The translations under genes were made by a program, and so were the position numbers. Below, in pieces: positions 1 to 50,939 of a stretch of DNA of 64,000 nt. The stretch comes from Gammaproteobacteria bacterium. GTDB taxonomy: Bacteria > Pseudomonadota > Gammaproteobacteria > Steroidobacterales > Woeseiaceae. The notes below the pieces were generated by a model. The model saw only the letters and a program-made list of their open reading frames with translations. It was not told the DNA's origin and made no database searches. The stretch spans positions 28,575 through 92,574 of the forward strand of contig JAHEGH010000002.1 of the NCBI GenBank assembly GCA_024639825.1. Reading direction: 5' to 3'. The stretch's first letter is position 1. Every line of letters starts with the position of its first letter.

Positions 1-822
1 GCAGGCCCGGTAGGCAGTCTTGACGCCTATATCCAGGCTGTCGGCTCGATAGCTGTTCTGTCCAAAGAGGATGAACAGTCGCTCGCAACGCGTTATCGCG
101 ACGAAGAAGACCTCGACGCCGCACGCGAGCTCGTTATGGCGCATCTGCGTTTTGTTGTGCATATCGCCAAGGGCTACACGGGCTATGGCCTGCCACTGAA
201 TGACCTCATCCAGGAAGGCAACGTCGGTCTCATGAAAGCCGTCAAACGTTTCGACCCGAGTTATGACGTACGACTCGTCTCGTTCGCCGTGCACTGGATT
301 CGCGCCGAGATTCACGAGTTCGTACTCAAGAACTGGCGCATCGTGAAAGTTGCCACGACCAAAGCCCAACGCAAGCTGTTCTTCAATCTTCGCGGCAAGA
401 AAAAGACGCTTGCCTGGCTCTCTGCTGCCGAAACGAAAGCGGTTGCTGATGATCTGGGCGTGAGCGCCAAGGAAGTCACGGAAATGGAAAAGCGTCTGCA
501 CTCGCGCGACGCAATCTTCGATCCAACTCCGGACCTCGATGACGACCATAATTACACGCCAGCGGCCTACCTGCCGGCACCGGACTCCGATCCGGCCAAG
601 CAGGTCGAGACCGCAGACTTCAACCATGACGCGACGACACGAATGACCGCCGCGTTGAACGTCCTCGACGACCGTGCCCGCCACATCATCGAGGCTCGCT
701 GGCTGACAGAGAGCAAAGCGACGCTGCACGAGCTTGCCGATGAGTACGGCATCTCAGCTGAGCGTATTCGCCAACTCGAGGCCAACGCGATCAAGAAGCT
801 GCGTAACGCGATGGCCGTGTAA
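1..822 (+). CDS. rpoH: RNA polymerase sigma-32 (heat-shock sigma factor RpoH), 5' end cut by the window edge
   Basis: Frame 1 is open from base 1 (AGPVGSLDAYIQ...). It contains the region 2 motif QEGNVGLMKAVKRFDP, the RpoH box QRKLFFNLR and a region 4 HTH (ISAERIRQLEANAIKKLR). Confidence 0.93.
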   Translation, partial: AGPVGSLDAYIQAVGSIAVLSKEDEQSLATRYRDEEDLDAARELVMAHLRFVVHIAKGYTGYGLPLNDLIQEGNVGLMKAVKRFDPSYDVRLVSFAVHWIRAEIHEFVLKNWRIVKVATTKAQRKLFFNLRGKKKTLAWLSAAETKAVADDLGVSAKEVTEMEKRLHSRDAIFDPTPDLDDDHNYTPAAYLPAPDSDPAKQVETADFNHDATTRMTAALNVLDDRARHIIEARWLTESKATLHELADEYGISAERIRQLEANAIKKLRNAMAV

Positions 823-3118: not shown

Positions 3119-3796
3119 CTACCCTTGGGTAACCGGCACCATCGTGATTTCCACGCGGCGGTTCGCCTGGCGGCCCGCTTCTGAGCTGTTGTCAGCGACC
3201 GGGCGAGACTCACCCATGCCCACCGTGATCAGACGTTGCGACGTGACACCTCGACCCTGCAGGTAGGCCGAGACCGCTCCGGCGCGACGCTCCGAGAGGC
3301 TCTGGTTGTAAGCGTCCGTCCCCGTGCTGTCCGTATGGCCTGCGACCTCAACAACGGTCTTGTCGAACTCTCCGAGCACTTTGCCAACCGAGTTCAGTAC
3401 ATCAAAGAAGGCCGGACTGAGGTCAGAGCTGTTTGTCGCGAACGTAATGTTTCCAGGCATATTCAGCGTGATGTTGTCGCCGTCACGATAAACGCTGACG
3501 CCAGTGCCTTCGAGTTCTGCGCGAAGCTCGGCTTCCTGTTTGTCCTGGTAGGCACCAACAGCCCCACCGGCGAGCGCCCCAACTCCGGCGCCAATCAAGG
3601 CATGCTGACGGCGCTCTACCGCGTCATCACCCGAGATCAGGCCAACAACGGCCCCAATACCAGCGCCGATCAGGGCACCCTTGGTCGCCTGGCTCGTCTG
3701 CTCTTCGCGAGTGTATGGGTCGAGTGTCGTGCAACCGCTCGCAATGACCGTCATGACGGTCATTGCGAGAATAATCTTTCCAGATCGCTTGTTCAT
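3119..3796 (-). CDS. OmpA-family lipoprotein (glycine-zipper plus OmpA-like C-terminal domain, YiaD-like)
   Basis: Lipobox VIASGC, Gly-zipper GALIGAGIGAVVGLISG / GAGVGALAGGAVGA, and an OmpA_C-like domain (NITFATNSSDL...GHTDSTGTDAYNQSLSERRA...NRRVEI). Confidence 0.85.
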   Translation of the reverse strand: MNKRSGKIILAMTVMTVIASGCTTLDPYTREEQTSQATKGALIGAGIGAVVGLISGDDAVERRQHALIGAGVGALAGGAVGAYQDKQEAELRAELEGTGVSVYRDGDNITLNMPGNITFATNSSDLSPAFFDVLNSVGKVLGEFDKTVVEVAGHTDSTGTDAYNQSLSERRAGAVSAYLQGRGVTSQRLITVGMGESRPVADNSSEAGRQANRRVEITMVPVTQG

Positions 3797-3925
3797 GATC
3801 TTTCCTTTGGCTTACATGGGTTTTGCGAATTGTAAGCTGCATTGTAATACGCGCCTACCTGAACGCACGCTTAATCGACCTTCTTATGTCGGGAGAATTC
3901 AAAGAAACCGCGTAAACTGTGACGT

Positions 3926-5652: not shown

Positions 5653-6921
5653 ATGTGGCGCATAGCTGCGCCCATGATCCTGTCGAATATTTCCGTGCCG
5701 TTGCTCGGCATGGTCGATACCGGCGTCACAGGGCATCTCGAGAGTCCCGCGTACCTCGGCGCCGTCGCGATCGGCGGCACTATCTTTACGTTCCTGTACA
5801 TGAGCATGAACTTCCTGCGCATGGGAACGACCGGCATTGCCGCACAGAGCTACGGTGCCGGAGACAATGACGGATTACGTGTGTCGCTGGGGCAGGCGCT
5901 CATTGTCAGCCTGGCGATCGCTTTCGCCATTCTTCTGCTGCAGCTTCCGGTTGGCCGGTTCGCTATTGCGCTTCTGGGTGGCGATGCGGAAACGCAGCAG
6001 CATGCAGCGACGTATTTTTCGATACGCGTGTGGAGCGCTCCAGGCACGCTCGCCAACTATGCTCTGATCGGCTGGTTCCTCGGCCTCCAGAACGCGCGCG
6101 TGCCGCTGTTAATCTTTCTCACGATCAACATCATCAATATCGTGCTCGATCTGCTGTTTGTGATTGTGTTCGGCATGAAGGTGGACGGCGTCGCACTCGC
6201 CTCGGTTATTGCGGAGTACTCCGGTCTGCTGGTGGGCGGCGCGTTTGCCATTAGCGCATTGCGAAGCCATGAGGGCCACTGGCCGCTCGCACGACTGACC
6301 CGGCTATCAGCGTACAAGTCGTTTTTTTCTATGAATGCCAGCCTGTTCGTTCGCTCGATGGCCCTGATGTTCACGTTTGCTTTCGTCACCGCGCAGGGCG
6401 CGCGACTTGGCCCCGCCATCCTCGCGGCGAACGCCGTACTGTTGAACTTCCAGAACCTGACGTCGCTGGGCCTCGACGGCCTGGCTCATGCCGCGGAGGC
6501 TATGGTGGGTAAAGCGGTGGGTCAGAAGGACCGGGATATGCTGCAGCATACGGTGCGGCTCACACTGAAGTGGTCGCTGATTTTTGCCGTGGGCTTTACC
6601 GTCACCTACCTGATCGCCGGGCCGCTCATCGTTCGTACCCTTACCGACCTGCCGGACGTTCGTAAGACGGCGATGGTTTACCTTCCGTGGCTCATCGTGT
6701 CACCGGTGATCTCTGTTTGGTGTTTTCTCTACGACGGCGTCTACGTCGGAATGACCCGTGCCCGGGAGATGCGCAACATCATGGTGTTCTCGACGTTCGC
6801 TGTATTTCTGCCGGCGTGGTATCTCACCCAGTCATTCGGCAACCACGGGCTGTGGTTTGCGTTCATGCTCTTTTTCGCGAGCCGTGGCATCGGCATGCAT
6901 TTTGTATACAAGAAGTTCTAG
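5653..6921 (+). CDS. MATE family efflux transporter (DinF-like)
   Basis: IAAPMILSNISVPLLGMVDTGVTGHL N-terminus and about 12 hydrophobic helices. Confidence 0.8.
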   Translation: MWRIAAPMILSNISVPLLGMVDTGVTGHLESPAYLGAVAIGGTIFTFLYMSMNFLRMGTTGIAAQSYGAGDNDGLRVSLGQALIVSLAIAFAILLLQLPVGRFAIALLGGDAETQQHAATYFSIRVWSAPGTLANYALIGWFLGLQNARVPLLIFLTINIINIVLDLLFVIVFGMKVDGVALASVIAEYSGLLVGGAFAISALRSHEGHWPLARLTRLSAYKSFFSMNASLFVRSMALMFTFAFVTAQGARLGPAILAANAVLLNFQNLTSLGLDGLAHAAEAMVGKAVGQKDRDMLQHTVRLTLKWSLIFAVGFTVTYLIAGPLIVRTLTDLPDVRKTAMVYLPWLIVSPVISVWCFLYDGVYVGMTRAREMRNIMVFSTFAVFLPAWYLTQSFGNHGLWFAFMLFFASRGIGMHFVYKKF

Positions 6922-8270
6922 GCCACTTTCTCGCAAAGTCTATGCGCGTTAGCTTTTGCCCAGAAGTATCCCAGGGTTCCTGAAAGAATATTAGCAACCG
7001 CGTAGGCACCGAAGATGCCCGCAATACCGAACAGCTCTTTGCCGATGAAAGCCAGCGGTATATACAAAACCAGGATTCGGGTAACGCTGATCACCACGCC
7101 GGGCAGCGGGTTCCCGAGGCCGTTGAACGCTGCATTGACGACCATGACGAGGCCGTAGGCACCGTAGCTGATCGGCGCGATCCACATGAACAGCCGGGTC
7201 ACATCCGTAACGGCCGGGTTGTCGCTGAATAGTCCCGGTACGACGCCGGACAAAAGTGCCAGAACCACTGCAATCACGAGGCCGCTCAGGAGACAGAAGC
7301 TCGCACACAGTCGCAGCGAGTGCTGAATTCTGTCTTCCTTACCCGCAGACAGGTTCTGGCCAACAAACGGACCGATGATCGACGACATCGCGTAATACAT
7401 GACGAGCACCATCGACTCAACCCGACTCGCGACACCGAAGCCGGCAACGGCTTCCGGTCCAAAGCGAGCGATCATCGCTGTGATCAGCGCCATACCGACA
7501 GGAACGATAGCGTTTGTCCCGGCTGCCGGCAGGCCAACATGAAGGATGTCGCGCCACGAGCGACGTATCTCGCCAGGCTCGGCATCTTTGAAACTGATCA
7601 TGTCCAGACGGTAGGCCAGGAAATAGATCGTGCCGACGAACATCGCACCCCGCGCGAGAAGCGCCGCGATCGCTGCACCATTGAGACCCAGCGCCGGGAC
7701 CGGCCCGAGACCGAAAATGAATATCGGATCGAGGCACACGTTCAATACCGCACCCGCAACCATGAGCTTGCTCGGCAAAACCGTATCGCCGGTTGCTCGC
7801 ATGCTACTGGTGCCCACCATGCCAATGACGAGGAAGGGCACGCCGCAGTAAAGAATCGTCATAAACGTGCGAATCATCGGAATCATGTCGTCCGGCGCAC
7901 CGAGCAGACGAAAGAGCGGATCGATCGTGAGAATCCCAATGAAGGACAACGAGGCCGTTATCAGGAACGACAACAGCAGGCTGTCGGTCGCAAGCCGCCT
8001 GGCTCGCCGGTGATCGCCGGAGCCGATCGCTCGCGCGACCACGGATGACGTACCGGCACCCAGACCGATCGCCACACTGGTGACGATCATCAGGATTGGA
8101 AAACCAAAACTGTAAGCCGCCAGCGCGCGGTCACCGACCATACCGAGAAAGTAGGTGTCGATAAACGACTGAGCCATCAACATGGTGATGCCAAGAAGCA
8201 CGGGCAAGGCCATGTTGACCAGGTGGGAGCCTACAGGGCCCTGCGTCAGTCTGGCCGGTTGGGAATTCAT
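6918..8270 (-). CDS. MATE family efflux transporter
   Basis: Start chosen at the internal ATG (MNSQPARLTQGPVGSHLVNMALPVLLGITMLMAQSFIDTYFLG). The longer ORF extension overlaps the NUDIX gene. Multi-pass membrane protein. Confidence 0.8.
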   Translation of the reverse strand: MNSQPARLTQGPVGSHLVNMALPVLLGITMLMAQSFIDTYFLGMVGDRALAAYSFGFPILMIVTSVAIGLGAGTSSVVARAIGSGDHRRARRLATDSLLLSFLITASLSFIGILTIDPLFRLLGAPDDMIPMIRTFMTILYCGVPFLVIGMVGTSSMRATGDTVLPSKLMVAGAVLNVCLDPIFIFGLGPVPALGLNGAAIAALLARGAMFVGTIYFLAYRLDMISFKDAEPGEIRRSWRDILHVGLPAAGTNAIVPVGMALITAMIARFGPEAVAGFGVASRVESMVLVMYYAMSSIIGPFVGQNLSAGKEDRIQHSLRLCASFCLLSGLVIAVVLALLSGVVPGLFSDNPAVTDVTRLFMWIAPISYGAYGLVMVVNAAFNGLGNPLPGVVISVTRILVLYIPLAFIGKELFGIAGIFGAYAVANILSGTLGYFWAKANAHRLCEKVA

Positions 8271-8318
8271 TCGAGCTCGTTGCGTTATGATCAGACAGGA
8301 CGAATACAGGTAATAGCC

Positions 8319-8867
8319 ATGAAACTCAAGTGGAAGCGCCTCTCCCGAAAAATTATCTACGAGAACGACTGGATGACGGTTCTCGAAGACGAGGTAATCA
8401 ACCCGGGCGGCGGTCGTAATCATTACGGCCATGTTCATTTCAGGAATCGCGCCGTCGCGATTATCCCCATCGATGAAGACGGCAATACGTGGCTGGTCGG
8501 GCAGGAGCGTTACACGCTTGGCGAGTATTCCTGGGAACTGCCGATGGGCGGCGCACCGCTCGATGAGAACCCGCTCACAGCCGCACGCCGTGAACTCAAG
8601 GAAGAAACCGGCCTGAGCGCCGGGCAGTGGTCGGAACTTATGCAGCTGCACACAAGCAACTCGATAACCGATGAGGTTGGCTATGTATATGTGGCGACCG
8701 AGCTAACTGAAGGCGAAACCGCTTTTGAGGAAACGGAGGATCTGACCATTCGCAAACTCCCACTGCGGGAGGCTGTACAAATGGTGATCGACGGTGCCAT
8801 TACCGATGCGATTAGTGCTGCTGCCTTACTTCGTCTGCACGCAACTAGAACATCATCCTCGCCGTAA
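8319..8867 (+). CDS. NUDIX hydrolase (ADP-ribose pyrophosphatase-like)
   Basis: Nudix box GGAPLDENPLTAARRELKEETGL. Start taken at MKLKWKRLS. Confidence 0.8.
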   Translation: MKLKWKRLSRKIIYENDWMTVLEDEVINPGGGRNHYGHVHFRNRAVAIIPIDEDGNTWLVGQERYTLGEYSWELPMGGAPLDENPLTAARRELKEETGLSAGQWSELMQLHTSNSITDEVGYVYVATELTEGETAFEETEDLTIRKLPLREAVQMVIDGAITDAISAAALLRLHATRTSSSP

Positions 8868-9423
8868 CCACATAGCGAAGTGGCCCACCGGCCTCAAGCG
8901 CATCGAAGGGATAGCACGTGACCAGCGTCAGCATGGCGGCATCCGTATCGAGAACGAGACTACCTCTACGCGAGTCAACGATATCGATGCCGACGACCTT
9001 GTAGATATGACGTTGGCCGCGCGTGGTTTCCATGCCGAGCAATTCGCCAACCTCGAGTTTTCTTAGAAATAGAAAGTGGGTGTCGCGATGTCCACCGATA
9101 ATTGCGTTACCCGTCTCACCCGGCATCGCGCTCGCGCTCAGGTGGCCTGGACCAAACGCCAGCGTTCGTCCCGAGCCACCGGCGAGCACAATCAGGTCCA
9201 CGTCTCGCTGCTTTGCCGTCAACCGGGCTACCGGCCAGGTATCGGCCCACGGCCAGGGCGTGGCGCGTTCCTCGCCGGCGCCGGCACGAACCCAGGCGCG
9301 TTGCATCAGTTCCTGAGCAAGCCATGCCTTGGCAGGAATGTACGCGCCCTGACCGAACTGCCAGAAGCCCAGGCACAAGAGGGCAGACACAACCCAGCCC
9401 CCGAGCCTACGCGCGCCGGCCAC
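8845..9423 (-). CDS. Class GN (marine proteobacterial type) sortase
   Basis: N-terminal TM helix (WVVSALLCLGFWQF), catalytic His context IIGGHRDTHF, TLxTC motif MLTLVTCYPF and conserved Arg LRYVVTA. GTG start proposed at 9423; there is no ATG before the TM helix. It lies immediately downstream of its predicted target. Confidence 0.8.
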   Translation of the reverse strand: MAGARRLGGWVVSALLCLGFWQFGQGAYIPAKAWLAQELMQRAWVRAGAGEERATPWPWADTWPVARLTAKQRDVDLIVLAGGSGRTLAFGPGHLSASAMPGETGNAIIGGHRDTHFLFLRKLEVGELLGMETTRGQRHIYKVVGIDIVDSRRGSLVLDTDAAMLTLVTCYPFDALEAGGPLRYVVTARMMF

Positions 9424-11476
9424 GTGACCGTCGCCTGCCGGTTCGAAGCATGACCATGAAGAGGAACGCAGCGAGTAACCATGCCGCCCCCATGATGCGC
9501 ATTGCCGGCGCGCTCGTGGCCGTCGCCGGGAAACCGAAGATCGCATTCGCGCTTTGCCCGTACGGCATCAGGTTTGGTACCTGCTCGCTGGACAGCGGAT
9601 CGCCGGCTGGACGCACCGGGGTCTTGTCCACCGCGATCAGGCTCGTGTATTTGCTGACGAGATGGTGGGTCAACGCCGCCTCAAGAATACCTGCACGTAA
9701 CGCTTCGGCATTTCCGCCCCGGCGCTCCTGATCCATCAGCTCACCGATCCGCGCTCTTGCCCACAGCGCCGCGACACCCTCGCTCTGTACCGGCACATCG
9801 AGCACCAGGTCGGCCGTCCAGGCGCCCGCCACCGAGTTGCCGGTTATGCGCACCTCGTCGCCACGGCGAAACTTGTTCGACGCCCGCACTTTCACTAGCA
9901 CCGGTTCGCCCAGGTACAGGTCGGGTACGGTGGCTGGATAGCTGTCCACGATCACACCACTCGGCCAATGCATGTTGATGTCTGTGACCTGCGGGTGCTC
10001 GAGTTTCCGAAACAGCGCTTCCATCTTTTCGCTGACCTCGTGCAGCGCGCTTATCAATGTGTAGGAACCTCGCCCGGCCTCCGCGGCCTTGCGCATGAAC
10101 AGGCTGTTGGGTGCGGAACCGATGCCCACCGTAAACAGGCGCGCGGCGCCAAGACGTTGTTCGATCATCGAGAACATCTGGTCTTCGTAGCCAACGCTGC
10201 CGTCCGTAATGAAGACGATCTGCCGAAGATGGGATTCCTGGGCCGGCGTGCTTAAAGCGAGCTTAAGCGCCGGGCGCATTTCGGTACCACCGTCAGCCTG
10301 CAGCTTTTGCACAAAGTTGAGCGCGGTCGCAACGTTGCTGGCCGACGCCGGCATGCTGTGTGGGGATAGCGCGGTGGTGTAGGAGTTAAACTCGATGACG
10401 TTGAACAGATCGCCTGGCTGCAGCGCCTTGATCGCCAGATCCACAGCGCGTTTTGCCTGCGACATTGATACACCGTGCATCGAACCCGACGTATCGACAA
10501 TGAATATAGTCTCACGCGGCATTTGTGCCGGCGACGCGTCTTCCTGATCTGGCGGCATGACCATGAGCAGGTGATACGGCTTGCCATCGATCGTCTCGGT
10601 GAATGCCATCGCTCGCGGCTCAGCAGAGGGTACGGGTTGCCACACAAGCTCGAAGTCGTGGTTCATGATCGTTTTCTGGTCGGACAAGGCAACGGTGTAT
10701 TGCCCCTCCTTTTCCGACACGCTAACCGGGTGGTAACGGCTGGCGATGATCTTGAGAGGCATGCCAGCATTCACGTGGGCGTTCAACGAAATCTTGTGGT
10801 TCGAAGAACGGCTGACCTGCGGTGGCGTAATCAGCGATGCGTCGGCGACCTGATCGGTGTCTGCCGACCAGCCGTTTCCCTGTTTGTCCGGCAGCGCCTG
10901 TCCCGGGATATAGCGCGGCGTCAGTGTCATTGGGAATCGGATACTGAAGCGGCCATCTTCGTAGCGAAGATCTTCCAGGTACTCGATTTCGACAACCACC
11001 CGTTCGCCGGGTGCGACATTTGCCACTGACGTTGTAAACAGGTTGGCACGCTGTTGCTGCACGAGGCTGGCTTTCCTGCCGCTCTGCCTGGCCTGCTCGT
11101 ACTCCTTTTTTGCCTGTTCCTTTTCACGAATTTCTCCCTCGATGAAGCGATCACCTATGTGCAGGCGCATGCGATCAACTGCTGCCTTGTCGGGCAACGG
11201 AAAAACGTAGATGCCTTCCACCCACTCGCCACCCTCGTTGCGGAATTCCTGTCGAACCTTCACGCGCGCTACGAGACCGCTGATATCCATACGGACGTCG
11301 GTGTTAAGCGTGGTGGCGGTCGCGTACCCCTGTTCCATGCGCCACAAAAGACTGCCAGCCTGTGCAGCCCCGGGTGTGGCTTCATTGGCCGATACAGGCT
11401 CCGGAAACGCCTGCAGCACGAACAACAGTGCGAGAATCCATAGCCAGGATCGAAGATCGGATTTGATGGTTTGCAT
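9407..11476 (-). CDS. Sortase target protein with VIT and von Willebrand factor A domains (marine proteobacterial sortase target family)
   Basis: Signal peptide, a VIT-like region (GIYVFPLPDKAAVDRMRLHIGDRFIEGEI) and a vWA MIDAS motif (IFIVDTSGSMHG). The C-terminus carries FPATAT, a hydrophobic helix and an RRRSRGRRA tail. The ATG at 11476 is preceded by AAGGGAGG. Confidence 0.87.
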   Translation of the reverse strand: MQTIKSDLRSWLWILALLFVLQAFPEPVSANEATPGAAQAGSLLWRMEQGYATATTLNTDVRMDISGLVARVKVRQEFRNEGGEWVEGIYVFPLPDKAAVDRMRLHIGDRFIEGEIREKEQAKKEYEQARQSGRKASLVQQQRANLFTTSVANVAPGERVVVEIEYLEDLRYEDGRFSIRFPMTLTPRYIPGQALPDKQGNGWSADTDQVADASLITPPQVSRSSNHKISLNAHVNAGMPLKIIASRYHPVSVSEKEGQYTVALSDQKTIMNHDFELVWQPVPSAEPRAMAFTETIDGKPYHLLMVMPPDQEDASPAQMPRETIFIVDTSGSMHGVSMSQAKRAVDLAIKALQPGDLFNVIEFNSYTTALSPHSMPASASNVATALNFVQKLQADGGTEMRPALKLALSTPAQESHLRQIVFITDGSVGYEDQMFSMIEQRLGAARLFTVGIGSAPNSLFMRKAAEAGRGSYTLISALHEVSEKMEALFRKLEHPQVTDINMHWPSGVIVDSYPATVPDLYLGEPVLVKVRASNKFRRGDEVRITGNSVAGAWTADLVLDVPVQSEGVAALWARARIGELMDQERRGGNAEALRAGILEAALTHHLVSKYTSLIAVDKTPVRPAGDPLSSEQVPNLMPYGQSANAIFGFPATATSAPAMRIMGAAWLLAAFLFMVMLRTGRRRSRGRRA

Positions 11477-11596
11477 TACGGCCTCCCTTTGGCGTGATAA
11501 CCATTTAAAGGGGGCAATGGGCCGGACCGCGGCCTGTGTCATGGCAATGCACGGGCGGAATGTGGCAAATTGTGACGGACCAACAAGGGGACCCAG
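11477..11596. promoter_or_regulatory. Divergent control region between the target/sortase operon and the two-component operon
   Basis: 120-nt intergenic spacer. It has direct repeats TGGCAAT (11542-11548) and TGGCAAAT (11563-11570), 21 nt apart start to start. Promoter elements were not confidently identified. Confidence 0.3.
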
Positions 11597-12289
11597 GTGG
11601 CCAAACGAATAGCAATCGTCGAAGACGAAGCAGCAATACGGGAAAACTATGCGGCAGCGTTCAGCCGGGAAGGCTATGTCGTCGACGGCTACGAGGCGCG
11701 ACGGCCGGCGCTTGATGCATTCGAAAGCCGCCTGCCCGATCTTGTCGTCATTGACATCAATCTGAAAGATGATGTGGAAGGCGGGTTTGAGCTATGCCGC
11801 GAACTTCGGGCACGCGCTGCCGATCTGCCGATCATCTTCCTGACCGCAAGGGACAGCGAATTCGATGCGGTGTCAGGCCTGCGCCTCGGCGCTGATGATT
11901 ACCTCACGAAAGACATCAGCCTGCCGCATTTGATGGCGCGCGTTGCGGCGCTGTTTCGTCGCCTCGACGCGATGCAGAAGCCGCAGGGTACCGAGAGCCG
12001 CATAACGCGCGGTGACCTGAGTATCGATACAGAGCGCATGACGATTCGCTGGCAGGACGAGCCGGTCGGGCTGACTCTGACGGAGTTCTGGTTGGTCCAT
12101 GCTCTCGCGCGTTACCCGGGACATGTGAAGAATCGGCAGCAGCTTATGGATGCCGCGCAGGCGGTACTCGACGACAACACGATCACGTCTCACGTCAAAC
12201 GTATTCGTCGCAAGTTCCACGCTATCGATGAGAGTTTCGATTCCATCGAGACGGTTTATGGTATGGGCTATCGCTGGATCAGCAATTAG
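11597..12289 (+). CDS. OmpR-family response regulator of the dedicated sortase system
   Basis: Receiver domain (IAIVEDE...DLVVIDINL, with the phospho-accepting Asp context) plus a winged-helix output (LTLTEFWLVHALARYPGHV...VYGMGYRW). GTG start. Confidence 0.85.
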   Translation: MAKRIAIVEDEAAIRENYAAAFSREGYVVDGYEARRPALDAFESRLPDLVVIDINLKDDVEGGFELCRELRARAADLPIIFLTARDSEFDAVSGLRLGADDYLTKDISLPHLMARVAALFRRLDAMQKPQGTESRITRGDLSIDTERMTIRWQDEPVGLTLTEFWLVHALARYPGHVKNRQQLMDAAQAVLDDNTITSHVKRIRRKFHAIDESFDSIETVYGMGYRWISN

Positions 12290-14334
12290 TGAATCTTCGG
12301 CGCCAGCTGCTACTCGTCAGCCTGCTGACCCTGATGTTGCCCTGGGCTGGCTGTGAATTCATTCGTGAAACCGAGATTGCGCTGCGCTCGGGTCAAGAGC
12401 AGATGCTGGCTGGAACGGCCAGGGCGATTGCCGGCTCAATGGTTCAGTACCGCGACGAGTTTCCCGTCCGTGACAGGTCCTATAGCGTCGGTGATCAGCT
12501 GTACATATACCGCCTCGATTCGCGGCCCGAGATCGACGGGTATTTTGACGACTGGGCACTCCCGTCCGCGTCGTTGCGTTCATTACGAGGCAGCGATGGT
12601 CTCATCCGTTTTGCCGTTGCGTCGTATGCGGAGGCAACCTATCTCTACGTTGAAGTCGCCGATCGCGATGTTATCTATGCAACCGCACAGTCGCTTCTGG
12701 TCGATGGTGCATCACAATTTGCCGATCGGGTTACGCTGGTAAGCAACCGCCCATCCAAATTCAGCGAGGCATTTACGTTCGCGGCGGAAGCGCCCGGCAG
12801 AATAATAAGCTATCGCCAATCGCCCTTTGGCTTTGAAGCTCAGGCCACTATCACAGCGTTCTGGCAGGATATTCCTGGCGGGTATCATCTGGAGGCCCGT
12901 ATTCCATCAGGACAGCTTGGTCCACGCCTCGGCCTGGTCATTCAAAATACAGCCGACCCGTTGCAGGCAGGTACTCGCAGCAGCTCATTCTCGGGTCGCA
13001 TACCGGGCTTGGCGATGAGCAAGATTGCCGAGCTGGAGCAGGTCGCGGAAGAACTCGTAGGGCCTGACATGCGTCTGATCCTCACAGACGCTGATGGCTG
13101 GCGTGTTGCTGCAGCCGGTGAGCTCGGATCGGGCGCGGGAGAGCCCTCGGACAACGGCTTCGCGCGACGCCTGTACGACTTGCTTGTCGAGCGAGGCAAG
13201 GAGGCGGCTTTCGCAGAGCCCGATCCGCAGGGGCGCGAGCAGCAACCCTACGTCAGTGCGGCACTGGAGGGCCGGGAAACAGGGACGTGGTTCAGAAACG
13301 TCGATACCGGGACGGCCATCGTTGCGGTTGCTGCGCCAATAAGCGATGGCGTCGAGGTGATCGGCGCGGTCATGTTACAGCGTGGTACAGACGCCATCCT
13401 GAGCCAGAGAAACGAGGGCTTGTCCCGACTCATCAACGTCACACTGATCACCACACTGGTGGTCGCGGGCGCGCTGCTCGGCTATGCGACCTGGCTGTCG
13501 CGTCGCATTCGAGCACTATCGATTGCCGCCGAAGATGCGCTGGAAACGGAAGACCTGGCTTCGGCATTGCCGAGCGCCCTCGCCGAGGACGAGATTGGCG
13601 ATTTGTCGCGGAGCTTCTCCTGGGTGTTGCGGCAGCTCGGCGAGTACAACGAGTACCTGCGCTCGCTCGCGTCCAAGCTGTCGCACGAACTACGCACGCC
13701 GCTCGCAATTGTGACCTCATCGCTGGAGAACCTCGAGCATGAAGCGCTCAACGAGGCGTCGCTCGGCTACACGGCGAGAGCGCGCGAAGGTGCCGATCGC
13801 TTGCGGCGAATTCTCAGCGCTATGAGCGAGGCAAGCCGGGTTGAGGAGCTGATGAAGCATGCCGAACCCGAACAGTTCGACTTACGGGCCGTTCTCGACT
13901 CGACGACGCGGGCCTATCGCGACGTCTACAGGAATCGGGCGTTTGAATTTACCGGGCGTATTGAGTCGGCACAGACCACGGGGTCACCGGAGCTGTTGAT
14001 CCAGATGCTCGACAAACTGGTTGATAATGCTGTCGACTTTAGCGAGGACGATGACACCATCACGTTGTCGCTGGAAGAACGGGATGATGAGTTCCTCATT
14101 GCCGTTACCAATCCCGGACCTGAGCTTCCGGAGCGCATGCGCTCGCAGCTGTTCGACTCAATGGTTTCGGTGCGCAGCGGCAAAGACTCGCGCCATCTCG
14201 GTCTGGGCCTTTATGTTGCGCGCCTGATCGCAGAAGGGCACGGCGGCCGTATCAGTGCGGACAACGTCGAGGGCGGCGTCTGTTTCACCGTATCGATACC
14301 CTCCGGTTGCAATCTCGATGCAACAAAGCGATAA
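12289..14334 (+). CDS. Sensor histidine kinase of the dedicated sortase system
   Basis: N-terminal TM helix, a periplasmic domain of about 360 aa, a second TM helix, a HAMP-like linker, an H-box (LSHELRTPLAI), an N-box (LDKLVDNAVDF) and a G-box (GLGLYVARLIAEGHGG). The start overlaps the regulator's stop codon by 1 nt. Confidence 0.87.
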   Translation: MNLRRQLLLVSLLTLMLPWAGCEFIRETEIALRSGQEQMLAGTARAIAGSMVQYRDEFPVRDRSYSVGDQLYIYRLDSRPEIDGYFDDWALPSASLRSLRGSDGLIRFAVASYAEATYLYVEVADRDVIYATAQSLLVDGASQFADRVTLVSNRPSKFSEAFTFAAEAPGRIISYRQSPFGFEAQATITAFWQDIPGGYHLEARIPSGQLGPRLGLVIQNTADPLQAGTRSSSFSGRIPGLAMSKIAELEQVAEELVGPDMRLILTDADGWRVAAAGELGSGAGEPSDNGFARRLYDLLVERGKEAAFAEPDPQGREQQPYVSAALEGRETGTWFRNVDTGTAIVAVAAPISDGVEVIGAVMLQRGTDAILSQRNEGLSRLINVTLITTLVVAGALLGYATWLSRRIRALSIAAEDALETEDLASALPSALAEDEIGDLSRSFSWVLRQLGEYNEYLRSLASKLSHELRTPLAIVTSSLENLEHEALNEASLGYTARAREGADRLRRILSAMSEASRVEELMKHAEPEQFDLRAVLDSTTRAYRDVYRNRAFEFTGRIESAQTTGSPELLIQMLDKLVDNAVDFSEDDDTITLSLEERDDEFLIAVTNPGPELPERMRSQLFDSMVSVRSGKDSRHLGLGLYVARLIAEGHGGRISADNVEGGVCFTVSIPSGCNLDATKR

Positions 14335-14366
14335 AGTACTGCTTCGATCTCGTCAGGAGCAAGACA

Positions 14367-14912
14367 ATGATGTTACGTAACGGTTCTTCCTTGCTTGTCC
14401 TCGCGATTCTGATGTTTCCTGGCGTCGGTCAGGCCGCCCCCTCCAATTACGATGAATGCATTCTCGAATCGTTGAAGGGTGTGTCGAGCGACATCGCCGC
14501 CCAGGCAATCATTTCAAGTTGCCGCAACCTGTATCCCGAACAGAAGGAAGTCGCCGCCCGGGTAGAAAACACGGCTCCGCCGCAAACCACTGCGCCCATT
14601 CCGCAGCCGGTCCCGGTTGCTACGGGACCAGGCAGAAGTTTGACGGCTGCAGAACTCGACAAACTCAGAGCCACAATCAAGGCGTTTGGCAGTAGCTACA
14701 CCGCTACCATTCAGAACAAGAATGAGAATCTTACGGTTACCGAAGTGACCATAGCGGTCTGGGACGATTCCGACTCAAGCTCGTTGCGCGAGTATCCGCA
14801 GGAAGTGATGATTGCCCCGATGGAATCGGTGAAATCCAGGTTTACTGTCCACTACAGAGGCAACGAACTCACCTGGGCCTGGAAGGTTGCCTCAGCTAAA
14901 GGCTACGACTGA
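14367..14912 (+). CDS. Hypothetical secreted protein
   Basis: Signal peptide MMLRNGSSLLVLAILMFPGVGQAAP and a Pro-rich linker. No family recognised. Confidence 0.45.
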   Translation: MMLRNGSSLLVLAILMFPGVGQAAPSNYDECILESLKGVSSDIAAQAIISSCRNLYPEQKEVAARVENTAPPQTTAPIPQPVPVATGPGRSLTAAELDKLRATIKAFGSSYTATIQNKNENLTVTEVTIAVWDDSDSSSLREYPQEVMIAPMESVKSRFTVHYRGNELTWAWKVASAKGYD

Positions 14913-15319
14913 TTCGGGCTCGCAAATCGCCGTGGACGAACCCAGAACCAGCTGGCAACCACGATCCCGGCAAAAACCGTGTAGCAAACCGCGAACACCC
15001 ATGCGGGAGCCTGGTAGTACAGAATGGCGTCAAGCCAGTGAGAGATGAAGGCGCCAGAGTACGTAGCGTCTCCGGCGCGCTCGCGAAGCGCCATCTCCCA
15101 GGTCGTCAACGGACAGATCATCCCAAACCAGGATTGCAGTGTGACGACGCCAATGGCAGCAAGGTGTGTAATTCGAAACCCCGGGTTTCGAACCCAGCCC
15201 CAATTCCGGAACTTACCCGCAAAGATGAGCACCAGACCGAGAACCACGAACGTGACAAATAAGACGTGACCGAAGAGCAACGCGTCTGCGGCCAGCAGCA
15301 ACAGGGAGGCACGGTCCAC
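14903..15319 (-). CDS. DUF2784-like membrane protein
   Basis: LLFGHVLFVTFVVLGLVLIF...GMICPLTTWEMALRERAG resembles the DUF2784 pattern, from memory. Four hydrophobic helices. Confidence 0.6.
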   Translation of the reverse strand: MDRASLLLLAADALLFGHVLFVTFVVLGLVLIFAGKFRNWGWVRNPGFRITHLAAIGVVTLQSWFGMICPLTTWEMALRERAGDATYSGAFISHWLDAILYYQAPAWVFAVCYTVFAGIVVASWFWVRPRRFASPNQS

Positions 15320-15321
15320 CG

Positions 15322-15633
15322 TTATGCGCCGGGGGTCTTACGCGGGAGACCCGCCTCCGCCTTGACCTCAAGGGGGCCAAAGCGCGCCTTGATATAGCTC
15401 ATGGCGCCCACGGGAACCGAAAACCAGATTAGTGCACCGTAGAGTCCCAGCTCCACCAGGACAACGAAGGTGGTCGCCGCGGTAACCAGGAAAGTCACCA
15501 CGGAGAAGAATGCGGTGACCGCCGATTTAACTCCGACACTTCTCCGGCACTCAGGACATCGGGTATCCCGAAACAGTATCGCCTTGATTTGTATCGAGTC
15601 GCTGGAGCAGTGCGGACATCTTCTGCACATCAT
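15322..15633 (-). CDS. Hypothetical zinc-ribbon membrane protein
   Basis: CxxC...CxxC (CRRCPHC ... CPEC) followed by two hydrophobic helices. It lies 2-3 nt from both neighbouring genes. Confidence 0.4.
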   Translation of the reverse strand: MMCRRCPHCSSDSIQIKAILFRDTRCPECRRSVGVKSAVTAFFSVVTFLVTAATTFVVLVELGLYGALIWFSVPVGAMSYIKARFGPLEVKAEAGLPRKTPGA

Positions 15634-15636
15634 CTT

Positions 15637-16098
15637 CTACACCTCGGTCACCCGCTTACACGAAGAGCTACTCCCGAAGCCTGACATTCGGATCCAGGTA
15701 AAACATCTTCTTCCACCCCTGCGTCTCGGTATCCAACCGCGAGACACGAACTCACCGAAAGTTGCCAGTGAAGCATCCATGTGAGCGTAATAATGAAATC
15801 GCCATTTTGGTCCGAGGACAAGGCTAACGTTCCCCCCGCGACTGTTGTTGCCGCTGAAGACCACCAGCCCTCCGGTTGCGGCCAGAACGTGTTTTCCTTT
15901 TGGAGCGAAAATATCGATCCCTTTGTGAACGCCCGATGCACCCCAGGGCTCGTACCAGAAGGTCGCGTCGTTCCAGTCAGGGGTCGTAGCGCCCTCCACT
16001 GGAATCACCAGGCGCTCCGGCACCAGGTAGCCTGCGAGAAAAACCACCAGTATTGTGACGCCGATACGTTTAGCCAGACGTCTCTTTCGTTCAGCCAT
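15637..16098 (-). CDS. M23 family metallopeptidase, membrane-anchored
   Basis: HxxxD (VHKGIDI) and HxH-type (FHYYAHM) motifs, with an N-terminal TM helix (IGVTILVVFLAGYLV). Start taken at MAERKRR. Confidence 0.75.
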   Translation of the reverse strand: MAERKRRLAKRIGVTILVVFLAGYLVPERLVIPVEGATTPDWNDATFWYEPWGASGVHKGIDIFAPKGKHVLAATGGLVVFSGNNSRGGNVSLVLGPKWRFHYYAHMDASLATFGEFVSRGWIPRRRGGRRCFTWIRMSGFGSSSSCKRVTEV

Positions 16099-16609
16099 GA
16101 TCGGCACCGCACTTGATAATAGACTCAACCAATTCCCATTCTTTCCGGCTACGCTGCGGGTCGGGGTCCTGGCAACATTCCACCTTTCGAACCCGGGCAA
16201 TGTAGTCCTCGGGAAATTGATTGAACTCGCATCCCAGCACTACGTATTCCCGGTACCAGTCTGTCGGAACCAGTGACTCGTCTATTGCTCCCTCGTCGGC
16301 AATATAGGACTTGCACCAGCCGAACCCGGGGACCTCGAGTGTCAGGCTGTTATAGCCCGACCCCAGGCCTTCGCAACGATCAAGAATGACTTCTTCCGCG
16401 GTGGCAATCTCGTAGACCGCCACGTACACCCCGTCACCGTCCTCGGAGATCGTACATTTGCCCGTACCGTCCACATGGCTTGTCTTCGAAAAATTGAGGG
16501 ACCAGGTCGGAAGAAAGTCCGTGCCGAGAAGTGTTGCAGATGGCACTCGCCTGTCCAGTCGAACAGGATGGAGGTTAGAGCCGTAGGCTGCGTAGCGGTA
16601 CTTGTTCAC
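16091..16609 (-). CDS. Gamma-glutamylcyclotransferase-like (GGCT/AIG2-like fold) protein
   Basis: The N-terminal YAAYGSNLHPVRL matches the YGSN(L/M) motif of GGCT-like proteins. The rest is unassigned. Confidence 0.5.
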   Translation of the reverse strand: MNKYRYAAYGSNLHPVRLDRRVPSATLLGTDFLPTWSLNFSKTSHVDGTGKCTISEDGDGVYVAVYEIATAEEVILDRCEGLGSGYNSLTLEVPGFGWCKSYIADEGAIDESLVPTDWYREYVVLGCEFNQFPEDYIARVRKVECCQDPDPQRSRKEWELVESIIKCGADHG

Positions 16610-50142: not shown

Positions 50143-50655
50143 CTAGACCGGGACCGCCGCGTTGCGCCGCTCTTTTTCCAGCTTCTTGCGAATTCGCTGG
50201 CGCTTCGCCTCGGACAGGTAGTCCACGAACAGCTTGCCATCGAGATGATCCATCTCGTGTTGTATGCAAACCGCGAGCAGGCCCTCGGCCTCCATCTCCA
50301 CCGCCTCGCCCTTGCGATCCAGGAAACGAACGCGAATATGTTCCGCACGCTCCACCGACTCGTAGTACCCGGGGACGGACAAACACCCTTCATCCGTCAC
50401 GGTCACGCCGTCCTTCTCGATAATTTCCGGGTTGATCAGCGCGAAGGGCTCCGATTTGTCCGATGACACATCAGCGACGAGCAGGCGCTTGTGGACGTCG
50501 ACCTGCGTCGCGGCCAGACCAATACCCGGTGCGTCGTACATGGTCTCGAACATGTCCCCGATCAGCGCGCGCAGCGCGTCATCCACCACCTCAACAGGGG
50601 CGGCCTTCTTCCGCAACCGCGGGTCAGGAAACTCCAATATCTTCAGTTTTGCCAT
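50143..50655 (-). CDS. def: Peptide deformylase
   Basis: [16 protein letters not shown] and HEMDHLDG metal-binding motifs. Start taken at [14 protein letters not shown]. Confidence 0.95.
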
Positions 50656-50939
50656 AATTTCCGTTGAGCCTTTCGACCCGTTAACCATGCAATATCGCTG
50701 TTTTGCAACATAATAAAACCAGCGTCGTTTTCGCGTGAATTCCTATAAATGCGACCTAAATGTTTGACTTTATTGAATAAGATGTCAGACAATGCCGCCA
50801 GAAATGCACCCTTCCGGACGTTATTTGGGGCCGGAAATGTGACGTAATTAGCAGCCTCGGCAGTACCGGCACGACATAGTATAGCAACGCCTTGAAAGTA
50901 CGGGCCTAAACTGAATTGTTTGTAGGGAGTCCTCGCGAC

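Follow-up and report, generated by a model that had tools for sequence, protein, structure and literature searches.

A Woeseiaceae copy of the catalogued proteobacterial sortase system, with a candidate operator and without PdsO

The sortase module and its families

The stretch of DNA analysed here (64,000 nt in full, hereafter the window; contig JAHEGH010000002.1 of assembly GCA_024639825.1) comes from a marine-sediment Woeseiaceae bacterium and carries at positions 8845-14334 a module of four intact open reading frames (ORFs), i.e. a target protein with its sortase on the minus strand and, diverging from them, a response regulator and a histidine kinase on the plus strand. This module is a Woeseiaceae copy of an already catalogued proteobacterial sortase system and not a new system, and its variations are minor: it has no PdsO, its sorting motif reads FPATAT, and its kinase scores under the cutoff of the family model. 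New in this analysis are a candidate operator, a CBM9-like fold in the kinase sensor, the F-for-L variant of the sorting motif and the existence of sensor pairs without a nearby sortase. A first-pass annotation, made from the sequence alone, had already placed the four ORFs, and every detail it gave of their coordinates, strands, motifs and 120-nt divergent gap was correct.

8845-14334, both strands: sortase module, with target and sortase on the minus strand and response regulator and kinase on the plus strand
8845-9423, minus strand: class GN sortase, 192 aa (TIGR03784; Pfam Sortase, 91.6 bits)
9407-11476, minus strand: sortase target, 689 aa (TIGR03788; Pfam VIT and VWA_3)
11477-11596, no strand: divergent control region of 120 nt between target and regulator
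11540-11575, minus strand: candidate PdsR operator, GTCACAATTTGCCACATTCCGCCCGTGCATTGCCATG (phylogenetic footprint)
11597-12289, plus strand: OmpR/PhoB-family response regulator of the PdsR/PghR type, 230 aa (TIGR03787; Pfam Response_reg and Trans_reg_C)
12289-14334, plus strand: sensor histidine kinase of the PdsS/PghK type, 681 aa (TIGR03785, under cutoff; Pfam HisKA and HATPase_c)

The gene set of this sortase system was defined by comparative genomics (PMC3237569). Against the NCBIfam models, the target reached 760.6 bits with TIGR03788 (marine proteobacterial sortase target; cutoff 551.65), the sortase 216.7 bits with TIGR03784 (class GN sortase; cutoff 158.25), covering the model from 1 to 174 of its 174 positions, and the regulator 386 bits with TIGR03787 (dedicated sortase system response regulator; cutoff 335.7). 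The kinase aligned end to end with TIGR03785 (residues 3-671 on model positions 1-703), but its 508.1 bits remain under the cutoff of 612.2. The earlier assignment of the quartet to these families was right, in the sense that all four hidden Markov models match, although only the first three proteins pass their cutoffs. Pfam calls agreed with NCBIfam throughout (VIT and vWA; Sortase; Response_reg and Trans_reg_C; HisKA and HATPase_c).

The genes within each pair are tightly packed. Those for the regulator and the kinase overlap by 1 nt, and the sortase, starting at GTG 9423, shares 17 nt with the 3' end of the target gene, an overlap that is kept in the closest relatives. A longer sortase ORF of 233 aa (ATG 9546) was rejected, since its overlap with the target would amount to 140 nt and relatives align only from GTG 9423 or later.

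Relatives were compared in the 80 closest loci (L-numbered), and residue conservation was counted over 48-80 homologues per gene. The gene order, with kinase and regulator on one side and target and sortase on the other, is kept in about 60 Woeseiaceae species-level loci at protein identities down to 52-62%, with a NUDIX and a MATE gene bordering the module in those loci. The best match of the sortase was 87% identical, the closest relatives being uncultured Woeseiaceae and related Gammaproteobacteria from sediments. Target and sortase were also found without an adjacent regulator or kinase in loci of Nitrospira, Burkholderiales, alphaproteobacterial and other origin (L065, L069, L073, L075 and L077-L080); enzyme and substrate also travel together without a two-component system beside them. 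Conversely, L081 (6281-10078) and L083 (367-4073) hold a PdsR/PdsS pair with an OmpA-like gene directly downstream and no VIT-vWA target or sortase within 7 kb. The pair in L081, the only one of the two that was scored, lies above both equivalog cutoffs (375 and 775 bits), and the OmpA-like gene that follows the pair in L081 and L083 falls under the cutoff of the PdsO model.

In Shewanella loci, a fifth catalogued member, the OmpA-like protein PdsO (TIGR03789), lies between regulator and target. PdsO was absent from the window, as judged by an OmpA C-terminal motif expression run over all six frames, and from the 80 closest loci, and the 120-nt gap between target and regulator is too short to hold pdsO. 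By the Shewanella standard, the first-pass description of the module as complete is thus questionable. The only OmpA-like ORF of the window (3119-3811, minus strand) encodes a YiaD-family glycine-zipper/OmpA-like lipoprotein and was rejected as PdsO, since it scored 264 bits on the YiaD model (cutoff 175) and 82 bits on the PdsO model (cutoff 152). The OmpA-like ORFs of the related loci are likewise either the syntenic YiaD homologue or generic OmpA-like genes (L072, L081 and L083). The YiaD-like gene lies about 5 kb from the sortase, in a position that is syntenic in most Woeseiaceae loci; as no operator precedes it, it is probably a conserved neighbour and not functionally linked to the sortase.

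The proposed damage sensor and the control region

Experimental work on the two-component pair of this family comes from Shewanella. In S. oneidensis, where it is SO2192/SO2193 (PghK/PghR), the pair responds to beta-lactams, vancomycin, D-cycloserine or the loss of penicillin-binding protein (PBP) 1a; PghKR then induces blaA, relV and the divergent SO2194-SO2196 (pdsO, target and sortase) more than 17-fold, and PghK requires its CBM9-like periplasmic domain (bioRxiv 10.1101/2023.05.05.539549). The ligand-pocket residues of PghK (UniProt Q8EF13) are R177, Y178 and I289. In a clinical S. algae lineage with the recurrent pdsS mutation G547W, sortase, target and pdsO were raised 126-, 388- and 799-fold, respectively (PMC11580497), and a PdsS/PdsR-type system is in use as a biosensor (PMC13488354). 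To speak of an uncharacterised system, as the first-pass annotation did, was therefore an overstatement: the pair is studied in Shewanella as PghKR/PdsSR, where it senses peptidoglycan damage and induces the sortase operon 17- to 388-fold. That annotation had also held that neither attachment substrate nor kinase signal nor role had been shown, which remains true of the acceptor (and of the exact ligand), whereas for signal and role it has been overtaken by the work on PghKR.

In the Woeseiaceae pair, the phosphotransfer residues and the architecture of the kinase are laid out as follows.

11753-11755, plus strand: phospho-acceptor D53 of the regulator, invariant in 58/58 relatives
Kinase residues 7-25 and 381-403, plus strand: transmembrane helices TM1 and TM2
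12364-13428, plus strand: periplasmic sensor of the kinase, about residues 26-380
12484-13017, plus strand: CBM9-like beta-sandwich, about residues 66-243 (AlphaFold and Foldseek)
Within the kinase sensor, plus strand: membrane-proximal alpha/beta subdomain alongside the CBM9-like module
13684-13686, plus strand: H466 of the HisKA domain, which is followed by the HATPase domain

Kinase residue H466 is present in 48/48 relatives, and a DGYxxDW motif is also conserved. Searching Pfam with the sensor at E <= 10 gave no match, and the resemblance to CBM9 is visible by fold comparison only: the AlphaFold model of kinase residues 1-404 (predicted local distance difference test score, pLDDT, 77) matched the CBM9 structures 7NWN and 7NWO in Foldseek (E ~5e-6, probability 1.0, TM-score 0.58-0.60 on the target), as well as DOMON-like and Cache/WalK-like sensor domains. 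By this model, the PghK-type architecture, with its CBM9-like periplasmic module, is retained in the Woeseiaceae kinase, which on its sequence is a divergent subtype. Another branch of the family reaches about 775 bits on TIGR03785 (774.8 for L081), often with a Pfam CBM9_1 domain. The Woeseiaceae orthologues are labelled 'ATP-binding protein' or 'hypothetical protein' by NCBI, and the score of the window kinase under the cutoff shows that present equivalog annotation misses this clade.

Some further features of the kinases were observed. The N-terminal hydrophobic segment ends in LPWAGCEF (residues 17-24; 12337-12360), which is invariant in 46 close homologues and whose cysteine is kept in 41/48 wider relatives; this lipobox-like A-G-C might reflect lipoprotein processing or a functionally important cysteine at the periplasmic face. 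In four Rhodocyclales loci (L064, L066, L067 and L076), the sortase-linked kinases match only from residues 315-339 to 670-671 and are without the large periplasmic sensor, in agreement with the remark that most betaproteobacterial PghK homologues have no CBM9 (bioRxiv 10.1101/2023.05.05.539549). Among the 120 matches listed for a homologue search with the L072 kinase, none bore a Shewanella label.

The control region was footprinted over 21 aligned intergenic regions, in which a block of 36 nt was invariant while its flanks had diverged. On the minus strand this block reads GTCACAATTTGCCACATT(C/A)CG(C/T)C(C/G)GTGCATTGCCATG, and it holds tandem direct repeats of about 11 bp (CACAATT / CACATTC / GCATTG) and two TTGCCA hexamers 21 bp apart (11542-11547 and 11563-11568). 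Such a layout is what would be expected for a regulator of the OmpR/PhoB family, and we regard 11540-11575 as a candidate regulator-binding site. The regulator here carries a winged-helix output domain (Trans_reg_C). Over 1.36 Mb (the window and the loci), about 56 of the 64 occurrences of TTGCCA[CT]A[AT]T fell in the intergenic region between target and regulator, and the direct repeat occurred once in the window, against a mean of 0.08 after shuffling. More distant loci, from gamma- and betaproteobacteria, carried related motifs at the corresponding place, and in L081 and L083 the CAYAWTT direct-repeat motif also precedes the OmpA-like gene downstream of PdsS/PdsR. No second copy of the operator was found in the window; a lone half-site, TTGCCATAAT, at 50649-50658 (plus strand) has no partner repeat and is probably due to chance. 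Since the PghKR preprint reports no binding site (bioRxiv 10.1101/2023.05.05.539549), the operator is a new prediction, and its conservation gives a handle for defining the regulon of the peptidoglycan-damage sensor.

The proximal TTGCCA (11542-11547) lies 66-71 nt upstream of the target ATG and is followed by a conserved -10-like TTTAAAT at 11509-11503. No sigma-70 consensus promoter was detected within 11477-11596, which fits activator-dependent promoters, and no Rfam match at E <= 0.1 was obtained across 8000-15500. These distances refer to a target start at ATG 11476, which has a strong Shine-Dalgarno sequence, AAGGGAGG, 5 nt upstream. An alternative target ORF of 711 aa (ATG 11542) was rejected: its start lies within the conserved operator, has no Shine-Dalgarno sequence and is not conserved. 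The ATG of this ORF (11540-11542) is the last triplet of the operator block, and gene callers with a preference for the longest ORF would place the target start 22 codons too early, burying the operator in coding sequence.

Proposed anchoring of the target protein

The elements of the target and of the sortase are as follows.

11387-11476, minus strand: Sec-type signal peptide of the target, residues 1-30 (sequence prediction)
About 10979-11305, minus strand: VIT domain (PF08487, 126 bits)
About 10058-10507, minus strand: vWA domain (PF13768, VWA_3, 87 bits)
10481-10495, minus strand: metal-ion-dependent adhesion site (MIDAS) motif DTSGS, i.e. D328-x-S330-x-S332, completed by T398 and D425
9410-9532, minus strand: C-terminal sorting signal of FPATAT, hydrophobic helix and basic tail
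9515-9532, minus strand: FPATAT motif of the sorting signal
9446-9511, minus strand: hydrophobic helix of the sorting signal, residues 656-677
9410-9445, minus strand: basic tail of the sorting signal, RTGRRRSRGRRA
Sortase residues 7-24, minus strand: N-terminal RR and hydrophobic anchor (sequence)
9088-9090, minus strand: catalytic H112 of the sortase, in HRDTHF (alignment to 2LN7)
8914-8916, minus strand: catalytic C170, in TLVTC (alignment to 2LN7)
8875-8877, minus strand: catalytic R183 (alignment to 2LN7)

All five MIDAS residues of the target (D328, S330, S332, T398 and D425) were invariant in 66/66 relatives, and its VIT-vWA part is homologous to PARP4 and to ITIH4/ITIH1 (E 3.5e-31 to 2.8e-17). 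Like other members of its family, the target ends in an LPxT-type motif, here with F as the first residue, followed by a transmembrane helix and a basic tail; cleavage is predicted between T652 and A653. FGFPATAT with helix and tail is nearly invariant across Woeseiaceae loci, and distant relatives from Rhodocyclales, Burkholderiales, Nitrospira and the alphaproteobacteria have LPQGAT, LPQTAT, LPKTAT or LPRTGT instead, for which reason the F-for-L change, seen in 49/66 relatives, is a clade variant of a known sorting motif. A scan of the 64-kb window found no second sortase-type signal; within the window, the sortase of this Gram-negative bacterium has a single cognate target, which is encoded beside it.

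The first-pass annotation had read a catalytic Cys/His/Arg set in the sortase, and this triad is present: 79-80 of 80 relatives retain H112, C170 and R183, which align residue for residue with the His, Cys and Arg of the solved class D sortase 2LN7. Class D also supplies the nearest solved and modelled relatives (2LN7 at E 4e-10; NF058671, 'LPxTATN-specific', at 80.6 bits), with class C sortases detectable as well (8T28 at E 1e-6; NF033745 at 39 bits). In the literature, proteobacterial sortases classify nearest class D (PMC8703055), the class D enzyme SrtC joins LPNTA proteins to diaminopimelate (DAP) cross-bridges, every characterised sortase class uses an amine acceptor, and Gram-negative sortases were still called not well characterised in a 2021 review (PMC8225981). 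We found no published biochemistry for any class GN sortase, and no paper showing the attachment acceptor of a Gram-negative sortase.

Taken together, we consider it probable (roughly 0.6) that a sortase under the control of PdsS/PdsR anchors the VIT-vWA target in the envelope, the likeliest acceptor being the meso-diaminopimelate of peptidoglycan. The CBM9-like sensor of the kinase would respond to a sign of peptidoglycan damage in the periplasm, probably a fragment that contains glycan, as suggested by the Shewanella experiments and by the fold modelled here, whereupon H466 would phosphorylate D53 of the regulator, both residues being conserved. The phosphorylated regulator would then bind the repeats of the footprinted element at 11540-11575 and activate the translationally coupled target-sortase operon. 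From its sequence, the target should be exported by Sec and retained in the inner membrane by its C-terminal helix, where the membrane-anchored periplasmic sortase, with its conserved triad, would cut FPAT|AT and form a thioacyl intermediate on C170. By analogy with class D, the amine that receives T652 would most likely be the epsilon-amino group on meso-diaminopimelate of lipid II or of peptidoglycan, and the product, more speculatively, may be a wall-anchored, metal-dependent (MIDAS) binding protein made upon wall damage. Meso-diaminopimelate is favoured because the closest relatives are of class D, which uses DAP cross-bridges, because the T-A motif is shared, and because PdsO appears dispensable for the sortase reaction in the Woeseiaceae lineage: sortase and target are intact and conserved there without it, so that PdsO should not be an obligatory acceptor.

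Several observations weigh against this reading. Deletion of SO2194-SO2196 left the ampicillin resistance of S. oneidensis unchanged (bioRxiv 10.1101/2023.05.05.539549), and a physiological benefit is therefore unproven. The ligand of the Woeseiaceae kinase could differ from that of Shewanella PghK, given its score under the equivalog cutoff and the lack of a Pfam domain in its sensor. The distal TTGCCA (11563-11568) lies 29 nt from the regulator start codon, and might also affect the transcription of regulator and kinase. Lastly, we found no experiment in any organism on the activity, cleavage site or acceptor of a GN sortase.

It is unlikely that the sortase joins its target not to peptidoglycan but to a protein, be it an outer-membrane or OmpA-like partner such as PdsO or, in the manner of class C pilus sortases, further copies of the target via a lysine side chain. 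In favour are the OmpA-like gene of Shewanella, which shares a transcript with the target and shows the strongest induction of the set, the detectable class C relatives, and the YiaD-type OmpA lipoprotein that Woeseiaceae keep in synteny at a distance of about 5 kb; yet the sortase and target persist intact where PdsO is absent, the YiaD-like gene has no operator, class D models outscore those of class C (80 vs. 39 bits), and there is a single substrate with no pilin-like partner gene. Still less probable is a mainly proteolytic role, in which the enzyme would use water as nucleophile, cut off the membrane anchor and set free a soluble VIT-vWA protein, either in the periplasm or further out. 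Sortases such as sortase A do hydrolyse their substrates when a nucleophile is absent, which speaks for this possibility. VIT-vWA homologues with GlyGly-CTERM or PEP-CTERM signals are moreover handled by unrelated cleaving enzymes (PMC3237569), suggesting that removal of the anchor is a shared need. A plain signal-anchor protease, however, would need no sortase fold, the full transpeptidase triad including Arg is invariant, and the characterised sortase classes all use amines (PMC8225981).

A different doubt concerns the control of the operon, since the two-component system may be a general wall-stress regulator that happens to lie beside the sortase operon, whose genes would be a minor or unregulated member of the regulon here. 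The PdsS/PdsR pairs of L081 and L083, which adjoin an OmpA-like gene and not a sortase or target, and the Nitrospira and alphaproteobacterial loci with sortase and target but no adjacent two-component system favour this idea. We nevertheless think it improbable, to about the same degree as a protein acceptor, because virtually all Woeseiaceae loci retain both the divergent layout and the operator, because the half-site at 11542-11547 occupies a typical activator position relative to the target ATG, and because both Shewanella studies place the sortase operon with the most strongly induced genes. The idea is compatible with a PdsS/PdsR-controlled sortase that anchors the target, and chiefly disputes the word 'dedicated'. 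On that word the first-pass annotation, which gave the sortase a two-component system of its own, is indeed doubtful, as the Shewanella pair controls genes unrelated to the sortase, the sortase operon could be deleted there without an ampicillin phenotype, and the pairs in L081 and L083 have neither sortase nor target within 7 kb.

The role of a sortase in a diderm envelope has been a question since such genes were first noticed in about 2001-2004, and this locus narrows the options without answering it. The acceptor question in diderms is not peculiar to the Woeseiaceae locus, and PdsO is made a less likely acceptor by the fact that the system persists without it in Woeseiaceae, a sediment family that is both large and ecologically dominant. 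A more specific proposal, which we hold only tentatively, is that the PdsO-free Woeseiaceae version covalently fixes a MIDAS-bearing VIT-vWA protein to the meso-diaminopimelate of the sacculus via a lineage-specific FPAT|AT signal and is induced by a CBM9-type damage sensor through the CAYAWTT/TTGCCA operator. If this were true, the diderm envelope would have in this module an inducible repair or tethering element built by a sortase, and PdsO would be the acceptor nowhere.

Neighbouring genes and comparison with known systems

Beyond the kinase, a 201-aa ORF (14307-14912, plus strand) was rejected as a member of the module, having no homologue in the 80 related loci, and for the same reason it is a lineage-specific insertion; its probable start lies near 14367 with a signal peptide, and it gave a weak VF_A0006 four-cysteine match (29.7 bits vs. 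a cutoff of 65). The 187-aa product of 15637-16200 (minus strand) resembles the amidase activator ActS only weakly, in a LytM/M23-like match of 29 bits that lies far under cutoff, and is possibly a cell-wall-related neighbour. On the other side, 136-822 (plus strand) and 5653-8300 hold rpoH (TIGR02392, 341 bits), an acyl-CoA dehydrogenase and two convergent MATE transporters, one of them DinF-like. The G+C content is flat across the window (56-63%) and nothing around the module points to a mobile element; its surroundings are ordinary chromosome.

The closest counterparts are S. oneidensis SO2192-SO2196, where the target is described as ITI-family and the enzyme as 'marine sortase', and the pdsS/pdsR locus of S. 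algae, with which the module shares the four NCBIfam families, the divergent operons, the order of VIT-vWA target and then sortase, a large CBM9-like periplasmic sensor and an OmpR-type regulator. It differs from them in having no pdsO, an intergenic region of 120 nt instead of 232 bp, FPATAT in place of an LPxT-type motif, a kinase under the TIGR03785 cutoff in which Pfam CBM9_1 is undetectable by sequence, and no blaA, relV or second operator in the window.

Among the sortases, those of Bacillus class D (B. anthracis SrtC, 2LN7; SrtD, NF058671) resemble the Woeseiaceae enzyme in several respects: their GHRDT, TLxTCYPFD and RY motifs can be aligned, T-A(-T) closes the substrate motif, and class D acts on DAP-type peptidoglycan with few dedicated substrates. 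Here, in contrast, the host is diderm and the enzyme periplasmic, the score of 80 bits compares with class D cutoffs of 140-165 bits, the acceptor is predicted, and control is by a two-component system, not by sporulation sigma factors.

CreBC is the closest paralogous system of the sensor pair, the next-best models being CreB for the regulator (186.6 bits) and CreC for the kinase (150 bits), both matches under their cutoffs. CreBC and BlrAB respond to perturbation of PBPs or the cell wall and control beta-lactamases, through OmpR-family regulators that bind direct repeats, as is predicted for the Woeseiaceae regulator. Their repeat is the TTCAC cre tag, as against CAYAWTT/TTGCCA in the operator described here, and CreC, unlike the Woeseiaceae kinase, has no CBM9-like ectodomain.

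The target shares its homologous VIT and vWA module, with MIDAS, with ITIH1/ITIH4 and the vault protein PARP4. Inter-alpha-trypsin inhibitor heavy chains are coupled covalently to a glycan polymer via their C-terminus; that bond is an ester to chondroitin sulfate or hyaluronan, whereas a sortase would make an amide bond here, the enzymes are unrelated, and the Woeseiaceae protein is bacterial and periplasmic. Elsewhere, the VIT-vWA passenger family carries GlyGly-CTERM (rhombosortase) or PEP-CTERM (exosortase) signals, often in 'dedicated' cassettes with one target (PMC3237569). These homologues differ from the Woeseiaceae target in their motif and in their processing enzymes, which are unrelated to the sortase-fold cysteine transpeptidase encoded here.

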